Made by a program: the position numbers and the translations under genes. Shown piece after piece: positions 635-9,410 of a stretch of 64,000 nt of DNA. The notes under the pieces are model-generated. The model saw only the letters and a list, made by a program, of their open reading frames with translations, was not told the origin of the DNA and did no database searches. Location: the NCBI RefSeq assembly GCF_044371705.1, contig NZ_JBILTE010000001.1, forward strand, positions 2,570 to 66,569. The letters are read 5' to 3'. Position 1 is the stretch's first letter; each line of letters opens with the position of its first letter. The DNA comes from Flavobacterium sp. Its GTDB lineage: Bacteria; Bacteroidota; Bacteroidia; Flavobacteriales; Flavobacteriaceae.

Positions 635-2938
635 CTATACGGTTACCAAACTATTCGGCTCCACCAAAATTTCTTTTCCGTTAACAAAAACAATAATAGG
701 TTTATTTCCTTCCAACGAAAACTTTGTTTCATTAGATTGAACTGAAACTTTTAAAATTTGATTTCTGAAATTAATTTTAAATGAAAATCCTTTCCATTGT
801 GATGGAATTTTTGGATCAAAATGTAAAGCTTCATTTTTCACACGCATGCCACCAAAACCTTCTACAATACTCATCCATGTTCCGGCCATTGAAGTAATGT
901 GTAAACCTTCGTGCACTTCTTTATTGTAATCATCTAAGTCCAAACGGGAGGTTCGTAAATAAAAGGTGTACGCTTGTTCCATTCTGCCTAAACCAGCCGC
1001 TTGGATTGAGTGAACACAAGGGGAAAGTGAACTTTCATGAACGGTAAACGGCTCATAAAAATCGAAATGTTTTTCCAATTGTTCTTTGCTGAAATGGTCT
1101 TCAAAGAAGTAAAATCCTTGCAAGGTGTCTGCCTGTTTGATGTAAGGCGAACGCAAAATTCTGTCCCAAGACCATTTTTGATTAATGGGTCGCTGACTTT
1201 TATCTAAATCAGTAACTTTTACTAGTTCTTTATCTAAAAACCCATCTTGTTGCAAATAGACATCATGTTCTTCCGAATAGGGAAAATACATATTGTCTGC
1301 TACTTCTTTCCAATGATTGATTTCTGATTGCGAAAGTTTTACTTTATTTAAAATTCGGGTATAATCAGTTGAATACTCTTTTTCGATTTTATTAATCTGT
1401 TGCACTGTATAATCAATACACCATTTCGCAATATAATTGGTATAGAAATTATTGTTCACATTGTTTTCATATTCATTCGGACCGGTAACACCTAATATTA
1501 CATATTGATTTCTATAGGTTGAATAGGTGGCTCTTTGATGCCAAAAACGGGCAATTCCGATTAAAACTTCTAGCCCTTTTTCAGGAATATAGCTGTAATC
1601 TCCGGTAAAACGGTAATAATTAAATATAGCAAAAGCAATAGCTCCGTTTCGATGAATTTCTTCAAAGGTAATTTCCCATTCATTGTGACATTCTTCGCCG
1701 TTCATCGTTACCATTGGATACAAAGCTGCTCCGTTTTTGAAACCTAATTTCCCTGCATTTTCAATGGCTTTATCCAATTGATTATACCGATAGGTCAGTA
1801 AATTTCTAGCCACTTGCTGGTCTTTGGTTGCCATATAAAAGGGAATGCAATAAGCTTCCGTATCCCAATAAGTTGACCCACCATATTTTTCGCCGGTAAA
1901 TCCTTTTGGGCCAATATTTAAGCGAGAATCTTTTCCAAGATACGTTTGATTGAGTTGAAAAATATTGAAACGAATACCTTGCTGAGCTTTCACATCGCCA
2001 TCGATGGTAATATCACTCATTTCCCAAATTTTTGCCCAAGCTTTGATTTGATTTTCAAGTAATTTGTCGTAACCTATTTTTAAGGCATCAGCAATTGCTT
2101 TTTGAGCAGCTATTTGTGTGTTTTCATGATTCATGGAAACCGTGTATCCGCCTATTTTTTGAATTGTTGTAGTTTGATTTTTGGAAATAGATACTTCATA
2201 TGAAAATTCAATGGTTTCATTGGAAGACGCAACATTGAAAGGCGATGTATTTACAGATATACCATCAACCAAAATGGTGTTTTGCATGAAAGTAGTTGCT
2301 GTAAAATGTGTTTTGAATGTTCTTGCGGTTACGAAAGCTTCGTTTCCATTGTTTTTAACTTCTAATGGTTCCCAGAATTTTTCTTCCCAGTTGGCATCTT
2401 CGTTATGCACGCCGGCATCAATATAAGGTTTGAAAACAATTGTAGTATCCTGATTTAATGCAGTTATTTGATAATTAATCACACCTACTTCATCCAAATC
2501 AATGGAAAGAAAACGACGCACTTGCACCTCAATTTCGGTTCCGTTTTGAAGAATTGCATTAAAAGAGCGATGGTACCATCCTTCTTTCATGTTTAATTCT
2601 CTGCGAAAACTTTTCACGGCTACACAGTTGGCTAAATCTAAATTTTCGCCGTTGATTTCGATATTGATTCCAATCCAATTGGGGGCGTTCAATACTTTGG
2701 CAAAATATTCCGGATAACCGTTTTTCCACCAACCTACTTTTGTTTTATCGGGATAGTAAATTCCGCCGATATAACTACCTTGGAATGTTTTTCCGGAGTA
2801 GTATTCTTCAAAATTCGCACGTTGTCCCATCGCACCGTTTCCAATGCTGAACAAACTTTCAGAAGACTTAACCAGGTCTTGCTCAAATCCTTCTTCAATA
2901 ATCGACCAGTTATCTGGTTTTATATAATCTTGGTTCAT
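635..2938 (-). CDS. Glycoside hydrolase family 65 protein (maltose phosphorylase-like)
   Basis: 767 aa with GH65 motifs GPKGFTGEKYGGSTYWDTE, GPNEY and KQAD; adjacent to beta-PGM. Confidence 0.92.
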   Translation of the reverse strand: MNQDYIKPDNWSIIEEGFEQDLVKSSESLFSIGNGAMGQRANFEEYYSGKTFQGSYIGGIYYPDKTKVGWWKNGYPEYFAKVLNAPNWIGINIEINGENLDLANCVAVKSFRRELNMKEGWYHRSFNAILQNGTEIEVQVRRFLSIDLDEVGVINYQITALNQDTTIVFKPYIDAGVHNEDANWEEKFWEPLEVKNNGNEAFVTARTFKTHFTATTFMQNTILVDGISVNTSPFNVASSNETIEFSYEVSISKNQTTTIQKIGGYTVSMNHENTQIAAQKAIADALKIGYDKLLENQIKAWAKIWEMSDITIDGDVKAQQGIRFNIFQLNQTYLGKDSRLNIGPKGFTGEKYGGSTYWDTEAYCIPFYMATKDQQVARNLLTYRYNQLDKAIENAGKLGFKNGAALYPMVTMNGEECHNEWEITFEEIHRNGAIAFAIFNYYRFTGDYSYIPEKGLEVLIGIARFWHQRATYSTYRNQYVILGVTGPNEYENNVNNNFYTNYIAKWCIDYTVQQINKIEKEYSTDYTRILNKVKLSQSEINHWKEVADNMYFPYSEEHDVYLQQDGFLDKELVKVTDLDKSQRPINQKWSWDRILRSPYIKQADTLQGFYFFEDHFSKEQLEKHFDFYEPFTVHESSLSPCVHSIQAAGLGRMEQAYTFYLRTSRLDLDDYNKEVHEGLHITSMAGTWMSIVEGFGGMRVKNEALHFDPKIPSQWKGFSFKINFRNQILKVSVQSNETKFSLEGNKPIIVFVNGKEILVEPNSLVTV

Positions 2939-3022: not shown

Positions 3023-3679
3023 CTATTTATTTATAAGGTTTTGGATAAAATTCAAATCGATGAACGTAAAATCTGAAAATACGAAATGAGCTTCATGTAA
3101 AATGTTTTCTTCTCCAATTCCAACACTCGTCATGCCTGCACTATTTGCCGCTTGAATTCCTGCAACAGAATCTTCAAAAACAATGCATTTTTCGTTCGGG
3201 AAATGTACCTTTTTAGCTCCTTGAAGAAAAACTTCTGGGTCAGGCTTAGCGTTCGTAACATCGTTTCCATCAACAACAGCATCAAAATAGTCTATTACTT
3301 TTGCTTTTTCTAAAATAGGTCTGGCATTCTTACTGGCAGAACCCAACACGATTTTTTGTTGGTGTTGTTTTAAATAATCCAACACAGGCAAAACACCCGG
3401 CAGCACTTCGCTTTCATCCATAGTTACCAAATAGGAGAGATATTCATCGTTTTTTTGCTTAAGCCAAATTTCTTTGTCTTCTTGTGAGGCTGCAATATTT
3501 CCCAATGCAAGGATAATTTCTAACGACCGAACGCGGCTTACGCCTTTTAACTCTTCATTGTGTTCGGGTGTAAAATCAATACCGAGTTGTTGAGCCAATT
3601 TTTGCCAAGCTAAAAAATGATATTTAGCCGTGTCAACGATTACTCCATCTAAATCGAATATAAATGCTTTTTGATTCAT
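3023..3679 (-). CDS. pgmB: Beta-phosphoglucomutase (HAD family)
   Basis: FDLDGVIVDTA motif I, KPDPEVF and VFEDS motifs; located next to GH65. Confidence 0.93.
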   Translation of the reverse strand: MNQKAFIFDLDGVIVDTAKYHFLAWQKLAQQLGIDFTPEHNEELKGVSRVRSLEIILALGNIAASQEDKEIWLKQKNDEYLSYLVTMDESEVLPGVLPVLDYLKQHQQKIVLGSASKNARPILEKAKVIDYFDAVVDGNDVTNAKPDPEVFLQGAKKVHFPNEKCIVFEDSVAGIQAANSAGMTSVGIGEENILHEAHFVFSDFTFIDLNFIQNLINK

Positions 3680-5025
3680 TAGTTCTGTACTACATCATCC
3701 ACATCTTGAACTTTGTAAACTAACGCAGCAGCAATTAAAAAGCTTACTCCACTGGTAACTAAAGCAAAAATGGCATGATCATTATATAAATATTTGACAA
3801 GTAATCCTCCGATGAGGGCATTAATAATTTGTGGAATTACGATAAAGAAATTGAAAATTCCCATGTAGACACCCATTTTCTTTGGTTGAATAGAACCGGC
3901 TAAAATAGCATAAGGCATCGATAAAATACTTGCCCAGGCAATCCCTATACAAATCATGGAAAAAACAAGAGCTTCTTTGTTTGGCATGAAATAAATAGAT
4001 ATTAATCCAATTCCTCCAATAATTAAAGAAGTAGCATGTGTTTTCTTTCTTCCAATTTGTTTAGCAATATACGGAAGTGTAAAAGCGAAAATCATGGATA
4101 CAAAGTTGTAAACGCCAAAAAGAATTCCAACCCAATTTCCTGCATCATCAAACAAAGGGTTTTTAACATCATCAGACGCTAAACCATAAATGTGCTGTGC
4201 AATAGCAGGAGTGGTAAAAACCCACATTCCGAAAAGTCCAAACCAAGAAAAGAATTGTACCATACTTAATTGCCGCATGGTTGTTGGCATTTTAGCAAAA
4301 TCTTGAAAAATGTCTAGTAAACGTGCAGGTTTTTCATCATTGATAGCTTCCTTATGAGCTTTTTCATCAGTGAAGTTTTCTAATTCTTGTGGTGAATATT
4401 CTTTGGTGGTTACCACCGTAACCAAAATGGTAAGTATTAGTATAATTGCACCAATTATAAAAGACCAAATCAAATCATTCGGAATTCCGGAAACGGTTTC
4501 GCCTGTTATGCCAACCCATCTTAAAAAAGAAGGTAAAACAGAACCAACAACAGCTCCCATTCCGATTAACGCGGTTTGAACGCTAAATCCTAAAGTTCTT
4601 TGATCTGTTCTAAGATTATCACCAACTAAGGCACGAAAAGGTTCCATGGCAATGTTGAACGAAACATCCATAATCATAAGCATTCCGGCACCAACCCAAA
4701 GAGCAGGTAAAAATGCGACGAAAATTTCAGATTGCGGCATTAAAATTAAACCAATCGACGCAAGAATAGCACCAACCAGAAAAAATGGTTTTCTTCTACC
4801 AAATCGACCCCATGTATTATCACTATAATGACCAATAATAGGCTGAACTATGAGTCCGGTTAGTGGAGCAATAATCCAAAACCACGAAAGTTCATGCACG
4901 TCTGCACCGAATTTTTGAAGAATTCTACTGGCATTTGCATTTTGAAGAGCAAAACCCATTTGTATTCCTAAGAAACCGAAACTCATGTTCCAAATTTCCC
5001 AGAAACTTAACTTACGCTTTTCCAT
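3679..5025 (-). CDS. MFS sugar transporter (GPH/sucrose-maltose type)
   Basis: About 12 hydrophobic segments; QPIIGHYSD...GRRKPF motif; TAATG stop/start overlap with pgmB. Confidence 0.9.
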   Translation of the reverse strand: MEKRKLSFWEIWNMSFGFLGIQMGFALQNANASRILQKFGADVHELSWFWIIAPLTGLIVQPIIGHYSDNTWGRFGRRKPFFLVGAILASIGLILMPQSEIFVAFLPALWVGAGMLMIMDVSFNIAMEPFRALVGDNLRTDQRTLGFSVQTALIGMGAVVGSVLPSFLRWVGITGETVSGIPNDLIWSFIIGAIILILTILVTVVTTKEYSPQELENFTDEKAHKEAINDEKPARLLDIFQDFAKMPTTMRQLSMVQFFSWFGLFGMWVFTTPAIAQHIYGLASDDVKNPLFDDAGNWVGILFGVYNFVSMIFAFTLPYIAKQIGRKKTHATSLIIGGIGLISIYFMPNKEALVFSMICIGIAWASILSMPYAILAGSIQPKKMGVYMGIFNFFIVIPQIINALIGGLLVKYLYNDHAIFALVTSGVSFLIAAALVYKVQDVDDVVQN

Positions 5026-5114
5026 TATCGTAATTAAAAGATTAGTACTACGATAAGCGGTTGAAGGCTTATCAAAACTTGTGGGTTCGAAGTAAAATAC
5101 AAGTTTTGATTAGA

Positions 5115-5122
5115 CAAATATA
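5115..5122 (-). promoter_or_regulatory. Bacteroidota sigma70 -7 box (TATATTTG) for the MFS-pgmB-GH65 operon
   Basis: Exact TAnnTTTG match on the minus strand, about 90 bp upstream of the MFS start. Confidence 0.6.
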
Positions 5123-5220
5123 TAATAAATCTAATAGAAAAAATTATTTTTTGTTTAATTTAAGTGCCGCTTGGAGAATTTATAAAATACAATTATTTAT
5201 GGGAAGAGCGATTGACAAAA

Positions 5221-6249
5221 CTACAACGTTCGCGTAGATTCTCTGACAACTAATTGTGTTTCGATTATTTCTGTAACATATTTTTCATCTTCCTCATCTT
5301 CTTCTGATTCTAAGCGGGCGATTAGCATTTTTGCAGCTTTACCACCCATTTCCATGCCGTTTTGTCCAACCGTTGTAATGCTTGGGGTTGAGTATTTCGA
5401 AATGATTCCATCCGTAAAACCAATAACAGAAATATCTTCAGGAACTTTTTTTCCTAATTTTGACGCTAATTTGATAGCAGTAACAGCAAAAAGTTCGTTT
5501 ACCGCAAAAACAGCATCTATATCATTATTTCGAAGTAAATCAGCAATCAATTCTTCAGCAGCATCTATATCTTCAATTTTGATAATTAGATGGTCATCAA
5601 TCGGAATTCTATGGGATTCAAGTGCTTTGATGTAACCGTCAGTTCTTAGTTTTCCGACACTTACGTAATCTACAGTTGTAATAAGAGCTATTTTTTTTAA
5701 ACCGGAGTTCAGCAAAGATGTTACTGCCAGGTAAGATGCTTGAAAATCGTCAATAATCACTTTGTCGCATTCAATTTCGTTGGTTACACGATCAAAAAGA
5801 ACTACCGGCATTCCTTGATTAATGACCTCCGAAATGTGATGAAAATCTTTCTTCTGCTGGGTTTCTTTGGAAAGCGACATGATAAATCCATCGATGCTTC
5901 CATTTGCCAGCATTTCCATATTAATGACTTCTTTATCAAAAGACTCATCTGAAAGACATACAATAACGTTGTACCCAAATTGATTGGCCACATTTTCTAC
6001 ACCGCTAATAACTGTAGCAAAAAAATGATGCACAATTTCCGGAATAATCACCCCAATTGTTTTAGTCTTTTTGTTCTTTAAACTTAAAGCAATATTGTTG
6101 GGTTTGTAGTTGTAAAGTTTTGCAAAAGCCTGCACTTTTAGGCGGGTGTCCTCACTTATTTCTGAGCTGTCTTTCAATGATTTTGAAACAGTTGAAATGG
6201 AAACGTCGAGTTCTTTTGCAATCTGTTTTAAAGTTACTTTTCTCTTCAT
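5221..6249 (-). CDS. LacI-family transcriptional regulator (likely maltose/starch repressor)
   Basis: N-terminal HTH VTLKQIAKELDVSISTVSKSL, hinge YKPNNIALSL, and a periplasmic-binding-protein-like sensor domain. Confidence 0.95.
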   Translation of the reverse strand: MKRKVTLKQIAKELDVSISTVSKSLKDSSEISEDTRLKVQAFAKLYNYKPNNIALSLKNKKTKTIGVIIPEIVHHFFATVISGVENVANQFGYNVIVCLSDESFDKEVINMEMLANGSIDGFIMSLSKETQQKKDFHHISEVINQGMPVVLFDRVTNEIECDKVIIDDFQASYLAVTSLLNSGLKKIALITTVDYVSVGKLRTDGYIKALESHRIPIDDHLIIKIEDIDAAEELIADLLRNNDIDAVFAVNELFAVTAIKLASKLGKKVPEDISVIGFTDGIISKYSTPSITTVGQNGMEMGGKAAKMLIARLESEEDEEDEKYVTEIIETQLVVRESTRTL

Positions 6250-6350
6250 TTTGATACTAGCAATTATTAATTTGTCAATAAAGATAAATTATTTTTTTTG
6301 AATGGGTATTTTAGTGCTGTAAATATAAGAATATGTAAAAGTTTTCAACA

Positions 6351-6364
6351 CGAAAACGTTTTCG
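6351..6364. promoter_or_regulatory. Candidate LacI-family operator CGAAAACGTTTTCG
   Basis: Perfect 14-bp palindrome with an AAnCGnTT core, between the divergent lacI and susC genes. Confidence 0.7.
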
Positions 6365-6473
6365 GAGTCGGTTTAACATATGTTCATGAAATTTAATCAA
6401 AATTTTGCTTAAATTTAACATTCGAAGTAAAATACAAGCATACAAAACTCAATTTTTAACCTAAACAAACTGT

Positions 6474-9410
6474 ATGAAAACAATTTATAAAAAGTTGTTA
6501 TTTGCGTTGCTCTTGTTGCCGCTTTCAATGCTGGCACAGAGTACTTTAACAGGAAATGTGTCCGATTCTGGATCGGGTCAACCATTACCTGGAGTAAACG
6601 TTATTATTAAAGGTACTACTAAGGGTACCACCACTGACTTTGATGGTAATTTCACACTGTCAAGTGTCACCAAAGGCGATGTGATTGAATTCTCATTCGT
6701 GGGTTACAAAACACAAGATATCTCCTACGATTCTCAAAAAACAATTACTGTTAAGTTACAAGAAGATTTAACACAATTAGATGAAGTAACTTTAGTTGCG
6801 GTAGGTTACGGTACCGTTAAGAAAAAAGATGCAACAGGAGCTGTCACAACAGTTTCGGCAAAAGACTTTAATAAAGGGGCAAATGTAACAGCAGAAAGTT
6901 TATTAAACGGTCGTGTTGCGGGTGTAACCATCAATCAAAGTGGTGCTCCGGGTTCAGGTTCTGAAATCAGAATTCGTGGAGGGTCTTCGCTTTTAGCATC
7001 AAATGATCCGTTGATTGTTATTGATGGTTTGCCTGTATCCAATTCAACAGGCGAAGGCTCAACTTCTATTTTGTCTTCTATCAATCCAAATGATATTGAA
7101 AGTTTTACGGTATTGAAAGATGCTTCTGCAACCGCTATTTATGGTTCTCGTGCATCCAATGGTGTAATTATCATTACTACCAAAAGAGCCGGTAAAAAAC
7201 TTCAGGTGGACTACAACTTCCAATATGGCTCAGGAAAAAAATTCAATCAAGTAGATGTTTACGATGCCGACCAGTTTAGAGCTCTTATTGGCAATGAGTT
7301 TGCCGGTAATGCTCCGGTTCTTGCAAAATTAGGCTCAGCAAATACTGATTGGCAAGACGAAATTTACAGACGAACCGATTTTGTAGATAACAACTTATCA
7401 ATTAAAGGTAATTTATTTAAAACAATTCCAACGCGTCTTTCCGTAGGTAACACCTATCAGGAAGGTTTGCGTTTAACCAATAATTTTAATAGAAATTCTA
7501 TTTCGTTAAATTTATCACCGGAGTTTTTTGAAAATCATTTAAAATTTAGAGTAGCGGCCAATTATACCAATCAGCAAAACAGATTTGCCGCAGGTGTTGA
7601 GGGTTCTGCTATTCGTTTTGACCCCACACAGCCGGTTTATGATGCAAATTCGCCTTACGATGGATTTTTTGAGTACAGAAATGGTCAACCAGGAACCGCT
7701 AACTTCTTAGCTCCTGCCACACGTAACCCAGTTGCTCAATTGCTGCAAACAGACGATACAGGTGTGAATAATAGATTCTTTGGAAACTTTGAAATAGATT
7801 ATAAATTCCATTTCTTACCCGAATTAAGAGCAGTAGTCAACATGGGTTATGACCAACAAAAAGGGAACAGAAGTATTCAGGTGAGTAGAAATGCTTTAAC
7901 TGGATTTATCAATGGTACGACACTTTATGGAAATGATTCCTACTCCGAGAGCACAACAACCAATAAATTGTTAGATACTTATTTAGTGTATAACAACGAA
8001 GTTGGTAATTTAGTGTATGAAGTGACGGGTGGTTACTCCTACCAAAAATTTGAAAATGAAGGAAACTTTACCAGAAACAGAAATAATCCTCAAGATGTCC
8101 CCGGATCGTATATAAATGACGATATTGTTTTAATTGGTTTCTTTGGTAGAGCGAATTTAAATTTCAGCAATAAATATTTATTAACCTTAACCTACAGACG
8201 TGACGGTACTTCTCGTTTTGGCGAAGACAATCGTTGGGGTAATTTCCCATCTGTGGCTTTTGCTTGGAAGTTAAAAGAAGATTTCTTTGCAGAAAGCAGC
8301 AAATTGTCCGATTTAAAACTTCGTTTAGGTTGGGGTATCACAGGTCAGCAAGATATTTCCGCAGGAACCTTCTTCTTACCTAAGTATAATATTGGAGATC
8401 CTTTTTCTCAATACATTATTGGCGGAGCAGTTTATCCGGTAGGAACACCTGACTCATACGGTCCTGTGAAGTGGGAAGAGACCTATTCATACAACGCAGG
8501 TATCGATTTTGGATTTATGGAGAATAGATTAACTGGTGCATTGGATGTTTTCTACAAACAATCGTATGACTTGTTTCAAACAGCTCCTTTTGCTGATGGG
8601 GGTAACTTTGGTAACCAAGGTCCGCAAAACATTGGAGATATGACCACACAAGGTGTCGAATTTTCGATTGCATATGATGTTATTAAAAAAGAAGATATCA
8701 CTTGGAATGTGTCTTTTAATGCTACAAAATTTGAAAGAAGAATTGATGAGTTAGCACTTGGTCAACCACTATTTACCGGTTTTACGGGTGCTGGAACAGG
8801 AGGTACATCTCAAATTTTACAAGAAGGATTTACACCTAATTCGTTCTTTGTTTACAAACAATTGTATGATGTAAGTGGTACTCCTATTGAAGGTGCTTTT
8901 GCAGATTTAGATGGAAACGGTATTATCAATGGTGAAGACCGCTACATTTACAAAAACCCGGATCCTGATTTTCTGTTAGGCTTCGCTACAAATGTAAACT
9001 ACAAAAACTTTGATTTAGGGTTTAACCTAAGAGCAAGTGTAGGTAATCGTATTTTGAATACTACCAAGTCTACAAGATCCTATAGCAGTACTTTACAAGA
9101 GGGTCAAGCTTTGGAAAATATTTCAACTTTCTATGAATTTACCGGATTCCAGCAACAAAATGGAGAAAATGTTTTATCTGATTTGTTCGTTGAAAATGGT
9201 TCGTTTTTACGAATGGACTATGCAACTTTAGGGTATACTTTCCCAAAATGGTTAGAAGGTAAAGCTTCCTTACGCTTGTTTACTTCGGTTCAAAATCCAT
9301 TTATTATTACAGAATATGATGGATTGGATCCTGAAATTACTGGTGGAATTGATGCAACAATATATCCAAGACAAAGACAGTTTTTGTTAGGAGCAAACGT
9401 GAAATTTTAA
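6474..9410 (+). CDS. susC: SusC/RagA-family TonB-dependent outer-membrane transporter
   Basis: Signal peptide, N-terminal carboxypeptidase-regulatory-like domain, plug motif LKDASATAIYGSRASNGVIIITTK, C-terminal GANVKF. Confidence 0.96.
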   Translation: MKTIYKKLLFALLLLPLSMLAQSTLTGNVSDSGSGQPLPGVNVIIKGTTKGTTTDFDGNFTLSSVTKGDVIEFSFVGYKTQDISYDSQKTITVKLQEDLTQLDEVTLVAVGYGTVKKKDATGAVTTVSAKDFNKGANVTAESLLNGRVAGVTINQSGAPGSGSEIRIRGGSSLLASNDPLIVIDGLPVSNSTGEGSTSILSSINPNDIESFTVLKDASATAIYGSRASNGVIIITTKRAGKKLQVDYNFQYGSGKKFNQVDVYDADQFRALIGNEFAGNAPVLAKLGSANTDWQDEIYRRTDFVDNNLSIKGNLFKTIPTRLSVGNTYQEGLRLTNNFNRNSISLNLSPEFFENHLKFRVAANYTNQQNRFAAGVEGSAIRFDPTQPVYDANSPYDGFFEYRNGQPGTANFLAPATRNPVAQLLQTDDTGVNNRFFGNFEIDYKFHFLPELRAVVNMGYDQQKGNRSIQVSRNALTGFINGTTLYGNDSYSESTTTNKLLDTYLVYNNEVGNLVYEVTGGYSYQKFENEGNFTRNRNNPQDVPGSYINDDIVLIGFFGRANLNFSNKYLLTLTYRRDGTSRFGEDNRWGNFPSVAFAWKLKEDFFAESSKLSDLKLRLGWGITGQQDISAGTFFLPKYNIGDPFSQYIIGGAVYPVGTPDSYGPVKWEETYSYNAGIDFGFMENRLTGALDVFYKQSYDLFQTAPFADGGNFGNQGPQNIGDMTTQGVEFSIAYDVIKKEDITWNVSFNATKFERRIDELALGQPLFTGFTGAGTGGTSQILQEGFTPNSFFVYKQLYDVSGTPIEGAFADLDGNGIINGEDRYIYKNPDPDFLLGFATNVNYKNFDLGFNLRASVGNRILNTTKSTRSYSSTLQEGQALENISTFYEFTGFQQQNGENVLSDLFVENGSFLRMDYATLGYTFPKWLEGKASLRLFTSVQNPFIITEYDGLDPEITGGIDATIYPRQRQFLLGANVKF

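Follow-up and report, generated by a model that had tools for sequence, protein, structure and literature searches.

Co-varying sequence elements in the leaders of two divergent operons suggest direct mRNA-mRNA pairing at an alpha-glucan utilisation locus of Flavobacteriaceae

The regulation of polysaccharide utilisation loci (PULs) is usually explained by transcription factors, and RNA-level control is only beginning to be mapped in the Bacteroidota, which, to our knowledge, are without Hfq. DonS-type cis-encoded antisense RNAs act at Bacteroides susC mRNAs. In other bacteria, CopA and CopT make their first contact by kissing through a loop, and DsrA activates rpoS by an anti-antisense mechanism in which a leader hairpin is opened. 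The RNA regulators directed at susC in Bacteroidota have been described as dedicated antisense or small RNAs, among them GibS, a trans-acting small RNA of Bacteroides (PMC7366714). Direct contact between two messages has been reported from Listeria monocytogenes, in which the 5′ untranslated region of hly interacts with the prsA2 mRNA (PMC8722363). This work concerns a 64,000-nucleotide (nt) stretch of Flavobacterium sp. DNA (assembly GCF_044371705.1, contig NZ_JBILTE010000001.1, positions 2,570 to 66,569; hereafter the window) and an 18-nt element in it, TTCGAAGTAAAATACAAG, that occurs twice at one alpha-glucan utilisation locus, once on either side of a lacI gene. The element probably marks the two halves of an intermolecular RNA duplex, in which the leader of the susC mRNA would pair in trans with the leader of the divergent operon headed by an MFS sugar transporter gene.

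Like hly and prsA2, the proposed pair involves two separate, functionally linked mRNAs, one of which would pair in trans through its 5′ leader and thereby couple the expression of both, without a dedicated small-RNA gene. The Listeria case belongs to another phylum and has no sequence relation to this one; here both regions are leaders of divergent operons of a single locus, with one of them presented in a hairpin loop, and the flavobacterial pair is known from family-wide comparative co-variation rather than from experiment. The features that can be read from sequence in an mRNA-mRNA pair, namely separate predicted mRNAs and a complementarity beyond chance with compensatory change, are found at this locus. 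With DonS and GibS the element shares control, presumably at the RNA level, at the 5′ region of a PUL susC mRNA; those regulators are dedicated non-coding RNAs, which either overlap the 5′ end of susC from the opposite strand or have their genes elsewhere, whereas here a second mRNA, 1.3 kb away, would provide the partner through its leader, with no overlapping antisense unit. The likeness to CopA/CopT and DsrA-rpoS would lie in a complement shown in a loop for fast docking, in its extension into the stem and in the refolding of a leader that masks its start codon. In this case, however, the proposed activator is the 5′ end of an mRNA and not a small RNA, and the predicted gain in accessibility is modest. 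A search of both strands of positions 4900-6600 with Rfam 15 returned only chance-level matches (E above 1, far below the gathering scores), and literature searches found no published description of the element.

The two exact copies are located at 5086-5103 (copy A) and 6421-6438 (copy B), both on the + strand and 1335 nt apart. They had been noticed in an initial annotation of this DNA, in the same orientation around lacI, and all the coordinates given there hold. When up to three mismatches are allowed, the window still contains just these two copies, against 0.24 expected. A genome-wide count, a check proposed in the same annotation, gives two exact copies in 2.68 Mb, both at the locus; the closest other matches in the genome are two, each with two mismatches and each within a long open reading frame (ORF). 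Since the sequences around copy A and copy B have no relation to each other, the identity is sharply bounded in the window. The 18-mer is not palindromic, the sole palindrome within it being the 6-bp TTCGAA, and it is not a helical-phase direct repeat. As the annotation had pointed out, copy B stands just past a -7-like box (TAAATTTA, 6410-6417, with 3 nt between) and copy A is antisense in the MFS leader, where 13 of its 18 nt fall in the loop of a 12-bp hairpin, hairpin 1 (inverted repeat 5071-5082/5099-5110). This loop comprises 16 nt, and the other 5 nt of copy A belong to the top of the 5′ arm.

The susC operon (+ strand) and the MFS operon (- strand) diverge, with lacI between them, and each has its own conserved -7 box. 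The susC box reads TAATTTTG or TAAATTTG in relatives, which is the -7 consensus of the Bacteroidota sigma-A, TAnnTTTG. This box has been placed at -12 to -5 in F. psychrophilum (PMC9723704), and 4-5 nt separate it from the transcription start site (TSS) in F. johnsoniae (PMC6847099). On account of the position of the box and of this published spacing, the susC mRNA is predicted to begin within the first 1-3 nt of the element; its position in the transcript is predicted, besides, from the 5′ edge of the identity in other genera. On the opposite side, the predicted MFS TSS, at ~5110, is the first base of hairpin 1. F. johnsoniae UW101 carries the element (Fjoh_1403 for MFS, Fjoh_1404 for LacI, and Fjoh_1405 for susC), and in published data from this species an RNA-seq-based Rockhopper TSS for Fjoh_1403 falls at 1603076, 4 nt past the -7 box TACTTTTA and 1-2 nt ahead of hairpin 1. 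The resulting leader is 82 nt long and includes the antisense element at the orthologous position. Two other arrangements were considered and rejected: a plus-strand promoter at copy A, which would make both copies sense, since the stretch of 8 nt ahead of copy A varies and has no -7 box; and a cis-encoded antisense RNA at the susC 5′ end, since the complement is found 1335 nt off in the leader of the other operon. On the minus strand there is no conserved promoter box directed into copy B, and the -7 box of lacI is near the lacI ATG. A scan for sigma-70 promoters and terminators found no terminator-like site, and its sigma-70 model is uninformative for Bacteroidota.

An argument for a functional pair comes from relatives. 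Of 401 genomes of the genus, 207 contain a composite site-A pattern, each a single time, with controls near zero; F. johnsoniae UW101, whose coordinates agree with the published gene table, is among them. The genus analysis was made with 94 loci, all of which have both copies; in these, as in the 26 other genera treated below, the element matched at the two sites measures 17-22 nt. Block 1 of the element, TTCGAAGT, is almost invariant at both sites. It is followed by an A-rich linker of 2-6 nt, whose sequence and even length can differ between the copies of one genome (L010, for instance, with +2 nt, and L054, with +1 nt). Block 2, of about 8 nt, varies by species and agrees between both copies of one genome, its variants being ATACAAGC, GTATAAGC, GTACAAGC, ATATAAGC, GTATACG, GTTAAG, xTAAAA, and others. 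The longest word shared after TTCGAAGT has a mean of 7.6 nt within a genome versus 5.3 nt across genomes, and none of 2000 permutations reaches the observed value. Relatedness was handled by means of a LacI tree and edge-disjoint genome pairs in which neither site is the same. Among the ~33 phylogenetic contrasts obtained in this way, the within-genome pair is the closer one in ~20 and the cross pair in ~4, with ~9 ties (sign test, p ~0.0015); single-trait independent-pair tests go in the same direction and are individually underpowered.

A strict search with the Flavobacterium pattern in other genera yielded only chance-level matches, and one promising hit outside the genus (G489) was discarded as lying within a coding region. 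LacI-orthologue loci from 29 other genera were then fetched and both their flanks compared. In 26 of the 29, the same architecture is present with a different core, GAGAAGT[R]AAAATATAA, at the corresponding positions: site A reads ...CTTATCAAAACTTA-N-GAGAAGT[G/A]AAAATATAAGTTTTGA and site B reads TTTACATAnnTTTAAC-N-GAGAAGT[G/A]AAAATATAA. A reverse-complement control gave only words of 7-11 nt. In a column-by-column comparison of 21 of these genera, the identity covers exactly 17 columns, and concordance is at chance level in the two columns before and in all those after. The R (G/A) column is concordant in 21 of 21 genera, against 10.7 expected (A at both sites in 9, G in 12), and it changes four times on the tree, always together at both sites. 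Rare variants are likewise common to both copies (CGAAAAGTGAATC in L137, AAGAAGT in L139 and L145, AGGAAGT in L141, ATATTAA in L157), and one genus (L142) has an identical 2-nt deletion in the two of them. The 5′ edge of the identity is 5 nt past the -7 box, which corresponds to the predicted susC +1. The core GAGAAGT is not palindromic and these genera do not have TTCGAA, and therefore the TTCGAA palindrome is incidental to Flavobacterium. The matched pair was not found in the LacI-orthologue loci of three other genera: L144, which shows no hairpin signature, is perhaps a paralogue, the L154 locus is truncated where its contig ends, and L147 has the site-A signature and no shared word of at least 10 nt.

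The check for co-variation of the two copies in relatives, also proposed in the initial annotation, is thus positive both within the genus and across the family. The two-site element is real, conserved, and co-varying, and it is neither a scar nor a chance repeat. A duplication scar left by insertion of the lacI cassette, one of three options put forward at the outset, is refuted by a pair that is conserved and co-evolves in 26 of the 29 other genera. A target-site duplication or att scar was rejected in the same way, the pair being found co-varying at the same positions in the 94 genus genomes and in those 26 genera, with no recombinase or mobile-element gene among the genes of the locus. More generally, upkeep at the DNA level without functional identity could be imagined, either by gene conversion between direct repeats or as the remnant of a site-specific recombination or insertion that brought lacI, given that same-orientation direct repeats stand exactly around one gene. 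We regard this as highly improbable. Repeats of 17-22 nt with unrelated flanks do not offer the length that homologous conversion needs to correct internal mismatches efficiently. The absence of a recombinase or mobile-element gene speaks against it as well, as do the retention of the pair in other genera and, within Flavobacterium, over a LacI divergence down to 64-70% identity, and the fixed positions of the copies relative to promoter boxes, hairpins, and operator.

The nature of the mismatches speaks for an RNA duplex. Of the internal transitions between the two copies, 26 permit G-U pairing in a duplex of susC sense and MFS antisense RNA and 6 do not; an A at site A corresponds at site B to G in 23 instances, T in 21, and C in 6. 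This wobble asymmetry favours RNA because a model of DNA identity predicts none. The mean duplex energy is -23.2 kcal/mol within a genome and -18.4 kcal/mol across genomes, compared with -8.0 +/- 2.6 kcal/mol for shuffled partners. The differences in linker length also fit RNA, since a bulged duplex tolerates them and they are awkward for a protein site. Among the initial options, loop-initiated pairing of the two leaders is therefore the one that the comparative data favour, by virtue of the co-variation, the F. johnsoniae MFS transcript, and the G-U bias of the mismatches. The data show the identity of the copies, their conservation and co-variation, the place of the element within the MFS transcript of an orthologue, and a thermodynamically feasible duplex; we infer that the RNAs pair in the cell, where susC transcription starts, and in which direction expression is changed.

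A double-stranded DNA site for a second, non-LacI regulator had been the remaining option. Such a site would cover +1 to +18 of susC and about +8 to +25 of MFS and could serve a repressor or a roadblock. Both copies do stand just past predicted promoters, block 1 is invariant within the genus, and the + strand orientation is identical everywhere, as this explanation would have it. It is nonetheless unlikely. The variable positions change often and still match within genomes, which would require the specificity of the protein to drift repeatedly in step, and the linkers of one genome can be unequal in length. In other genera the identity begins at the predicted susC +1 and not before it, and a G-U bias of one strand combination is meaningless for DNA. 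The genome holds no further copy, and the element has the form of neither a palindrome nor a helical-phase direct repeat. A genome-wide regulator motif was rejected too, given that, of the 11 genomic occurrences of the 11-nt core TTCGAAGTAAA, those outside ORFs are at the locus alone.

In Bacteroidota, global RNA-binding proteins such as RbpB act on PUL mRNAs, and a common third factor, either a protein of this kind or an unlinked small RNA, might recognise the two leaders independently. The Flavobacterium RNAs both hold the self-complementary UUCGAA, which would be visible to one single-strand-specific binder. Beyond these 6 nt, however, the two RNAs are complementary and not identical, the GAGAAGU core of the other genera is not palindromic, and no third copy, sense or antisense, exists outside ORFs in the genome, so that we consider a third factor very unlikely. 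The preferred reading is still the duplex between the two leaders, and it is the structure of the MFS leader that suggests how this duplex might act.

The 101-nt MFS leader of the window has a minimum free energy (MFE) of -23.4 kcal/mol (z-score, -3.85) and is predicted to fold into hairpin 1 at its very 5′ end and hairpin 3, which masks the start region, while the susC leader is predicted to be unstructured (z-score, 0.11). The hairpin 1 stem is retained in relatives, and its variants are G-U pairs on the minus-strand RNA and A-C on the + strand; in 73 of 107 sequences, the minus-strand RNA gives the more stable hairpin. Hairpin 2, which shares nucleotides with both neighbours (Table 1), has a stem that is invariant in 75 sequences and a loop of 5-9 nt or longer. 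In other genera it can be extended to ~10 bp, with a 6-nt overlap with hairpin 1, and there a start-proximal stem equivalent to hairpin 3 is formed by a different pair, AUAGUAU/AUACUAU. The motif ACGAUAAUG at the MFS start (5023-5056 of the window, minus strand) is invariant in 75 genus sequences and complements the 3′ arm of hairpin 2, GCUUAUCGU. Furthermore, AAGCG in codons 3-4 of MFS is also able to pair with CGCUU.

The layout is that of a toehold-mediated strand invasion, because the complement is shown in the loop and the pairing extends into the top of the 5′ arm. The susC mRNA would begin with the sense element, and its free 5′ end would use the loop of hairpin 1 as a toehold for docking, from which it would proceed into the upper stem (block 2 ...AAGC with GCUU) and open the 5′-terminal hairpin. 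As a consequence, the MFS leader would be remodelled, with hairpin 2 forming and the structure that masks the start codon being weakened. In this way the translation of the MFS operon, which encodes the inner-membrane and cytoplasmic arm, and probably also the fate of its mRNA, would be tied to the presence of the mRNA of the outer-membrane arm. Such a conserved mRNA-mRNA toehold switch, in which the susC 5′ end opens the hairpin of the MFS-pgmB-GH65 message and licenses its translation as a post-transcriptional AND gate, is put forward tentatively, as a possibility less certain than the duplex itself.

Cofolding of the MFS leader with the first 40 nt of the susC leader agrees with parts of this scheme. 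In the genus, the mean energy gain is -14.6 kcal/mol, hairpin 2 is fully formed in 53 of the 94 leaders when the partner is present, compared with 4 without it, and the leaders with a masked AUG decrease from 87 to 47. The unpaired probability from -3 to +12 of the AUG rises from 0.447 alone to 0.547 with the susC leader in 93 genus leaders (an increase in 76, a decrease in 10); the corresponding values for 20 leaders of other genera are 0.374 and 0.494 (an increase in 15, a decrease in none). A simple switch between hairpins 2 and 3 that unmasks the AUG was rejected, given that MFE structures support it in about half of the genus leaders and neither in the window nor in other genera. The sign of regulation is taken as inferred, since only the ensemble calculation gives a consistent, modest effect. 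Our best guess is that pairing activates MFS translation, with the hairpin opened and the start codon made more accessible; the main alternative outcome would be coupled RNase III cleavage of the duplex, and protection of the 5′ end is another.

Published RNA-seq and ribosome profiling of F. johnsoniae in rich medium bear on this leader. The Fjoh_1403 mRNA is fairly abundant (0.37 reads/nt) and its ribosome density is 0.040, versus raw ratios of ~0.2 for lacI and susC, which fits a leader that masks its own start codon. In the same species (L048, Fjoh_1401-1405), RNA falls ~11-fold from MFS into the next two genes of the operon, a drop suggestive of polarity, with MFS at the head of the operon being poorly translated.

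It is important to note that several points weigh against the pairing or against the switch built on it. With regard to the transcripts, the Fjoh_1403 TSS is a Rockhopper prediction from RNA-seq coverage and not a mapped 5′ end, the susC TSS is deduced solely from the conserved -7 box and its spacing, and Fjoh_1405 is outside the expressed set that was given TSS calls. The low ribosome density on the mRNA of a membrane protein may have technical causes. With regard to structure, the strand test of hairpin 1 is neutral in other genera (10 versus 10), and RNAalifold recovers hairpin 2 alone on the MFS leader, without co-variation, because there is almost no variation in the stems of hairpins 1 and 2. 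For the window itself and for most other genera, the AUG-proximal hairpin persists in the MFE structure, and the partition-function effect on accessibility is modest. In the F. johnsoniae clade the match comprises just 12 nt plus 5-9 nt with one or two mismatches. Finally, the permutation, strand-of-hairpin, wobble, and AUG-accessibility statistics ignore kinship.

The element is situated in the control regions of a LacI-regulated sugar locus, as LacI-family operators are, and a role of the 18-mer as the LacI operator was considered. It was rejected, for the 18-mer contains no 14-20 bp palindrome with a central CG and has no other intergenic copy in the genome. Unlike such operators, the 18-mer is not palindromic, and a LacI-type palindrome, CGAAAACGTTTTCG, exists separately from it, with a conserved block ahead of it. 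This palindrome, rather than the 18-mer, is likely to be the LacI-type operator. It is found exactly 70 nt ahead of copy B in essentially all 94 genus genomes and reads CTAYCACGTTTTCG in one large clade. Its position upstream of the susC -33 region is unusual for a simple repressor, and the site may belong to the divergent lacI promoter or work from a position like that of an activator. Upstream of the MFS promoter there is another palindrome-like site, CTACAACGTTCGCGTAG (5221-5237), which overlaps the stop codon of lacI, and relatives have CGAAAACGTTTTTT or CTACAAGGTTGTAG at ~92-98 nt from copy A. Four more exact GAAAACGTTTTC palindromes occur in the genome (C124:2801, C167:34593, C210:541, and C210:3447), which probably belong to this or to paralogous LacI regulons; a paralogous LacI with 47% identity is encoded on contig C236 of the same genome.

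The genes around the element (Table 1) make up an alpha-glucan utilisation locus of the Flavobacteriia type, with a leftward and a rightward arm. An identical gene order has been described for the alpha-1,4-glucan PUL of Gramella forsetii, in which the intracellular and membrane operons differ in their response to substrate (PMC4069401).

Table 1. Positions of the genes, promoter boxes, repeat copies, hairpins, and putative operator of the locus, numbered from the first letter of the window.
Feature	Position	Strand	Remarks
GH65 maltose phosphorylase gene	635-2938	-	Third gene of the operon MFS, beta-phosphoglucomutase, GH65
HAD/beta-phosphoglucomutase (pgmB) gene	3023-3679	-	
MFS sugar transporter gene	3679-5025	-	Heads the operon MFS, beta-phosphoglucomutase, GH65 maltose phosphorylase
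Hairpin 3	5023-5056	-	Hairpin 2 3′ arm (UUAUCGU...) with ACGAUAA before/into the MFS AUG (5025-5023); predicted to mask the start region
Hairpin 2	5052-5073	-	GAUAAGC/GCUUAUC, variable loop; 3 nt shared with the 3′ arm of hairpin 1
Hairpin 1	5071-5110	-	12-bp stem (5099-5110 with 5071-5082), 16-nt loop; very 5′ end of the predicted MFS transcript
Copy A	5086-5103	-	Same + strand 18 nt; the MFS leader (minus strand) holds the reverse complement
Predicted sigma-A -7 box of the MFS operon, TATATTTG	5115-5122	-	TSS predicted ~5110
LacI-family regulator gene	5221-6249	-	Between both copies of the 18-mer
Conserved block AAAGTTTTCAACA and LacI-type palindrome CGAAAACGTTTTCG (6351-6364)	6338-6364		70 nt upstream of copy B
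Predicted -7 box of the susC operon, TAAATTTA	6410-6417	+	Reads TAATTTTG or TAAATTTG in relatives; TSS predicted ~6421-6423
Copy B	6421-6438	+	Predicted susC mRNA 5′ end; block 1 TTCGAAGT, A-rich linker, block 2 ATACAAG(C)
susC-like TonB-dependent transporter gene	6474-9410	+	Heads the operon susC, susD, susE, amylase (type IX secretion system tail)

The putative partners are messages that serve two arms of a single pathway, and the element is conserved across the Flavobacteriaceae, with a co-variation signal strong enough to specify the interacting nucleotides beforehand. F. johnsoniae UW101 is genetically tractable, and therefore the decisive experiments are straightforward. If the pairing is true, the locus would represent a rare natural case of direct mRNA-mRNA coupling and would offer a testable rule by which capture at the outer membrane and uptake at the inner membrane are kept in step. 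If the toehold switch is also true, the proteins of cytoplasmic maltose uptake and catabolism would be produced only in the presence of the outer-membrane uptake message, with no need for a small-RNA gene.

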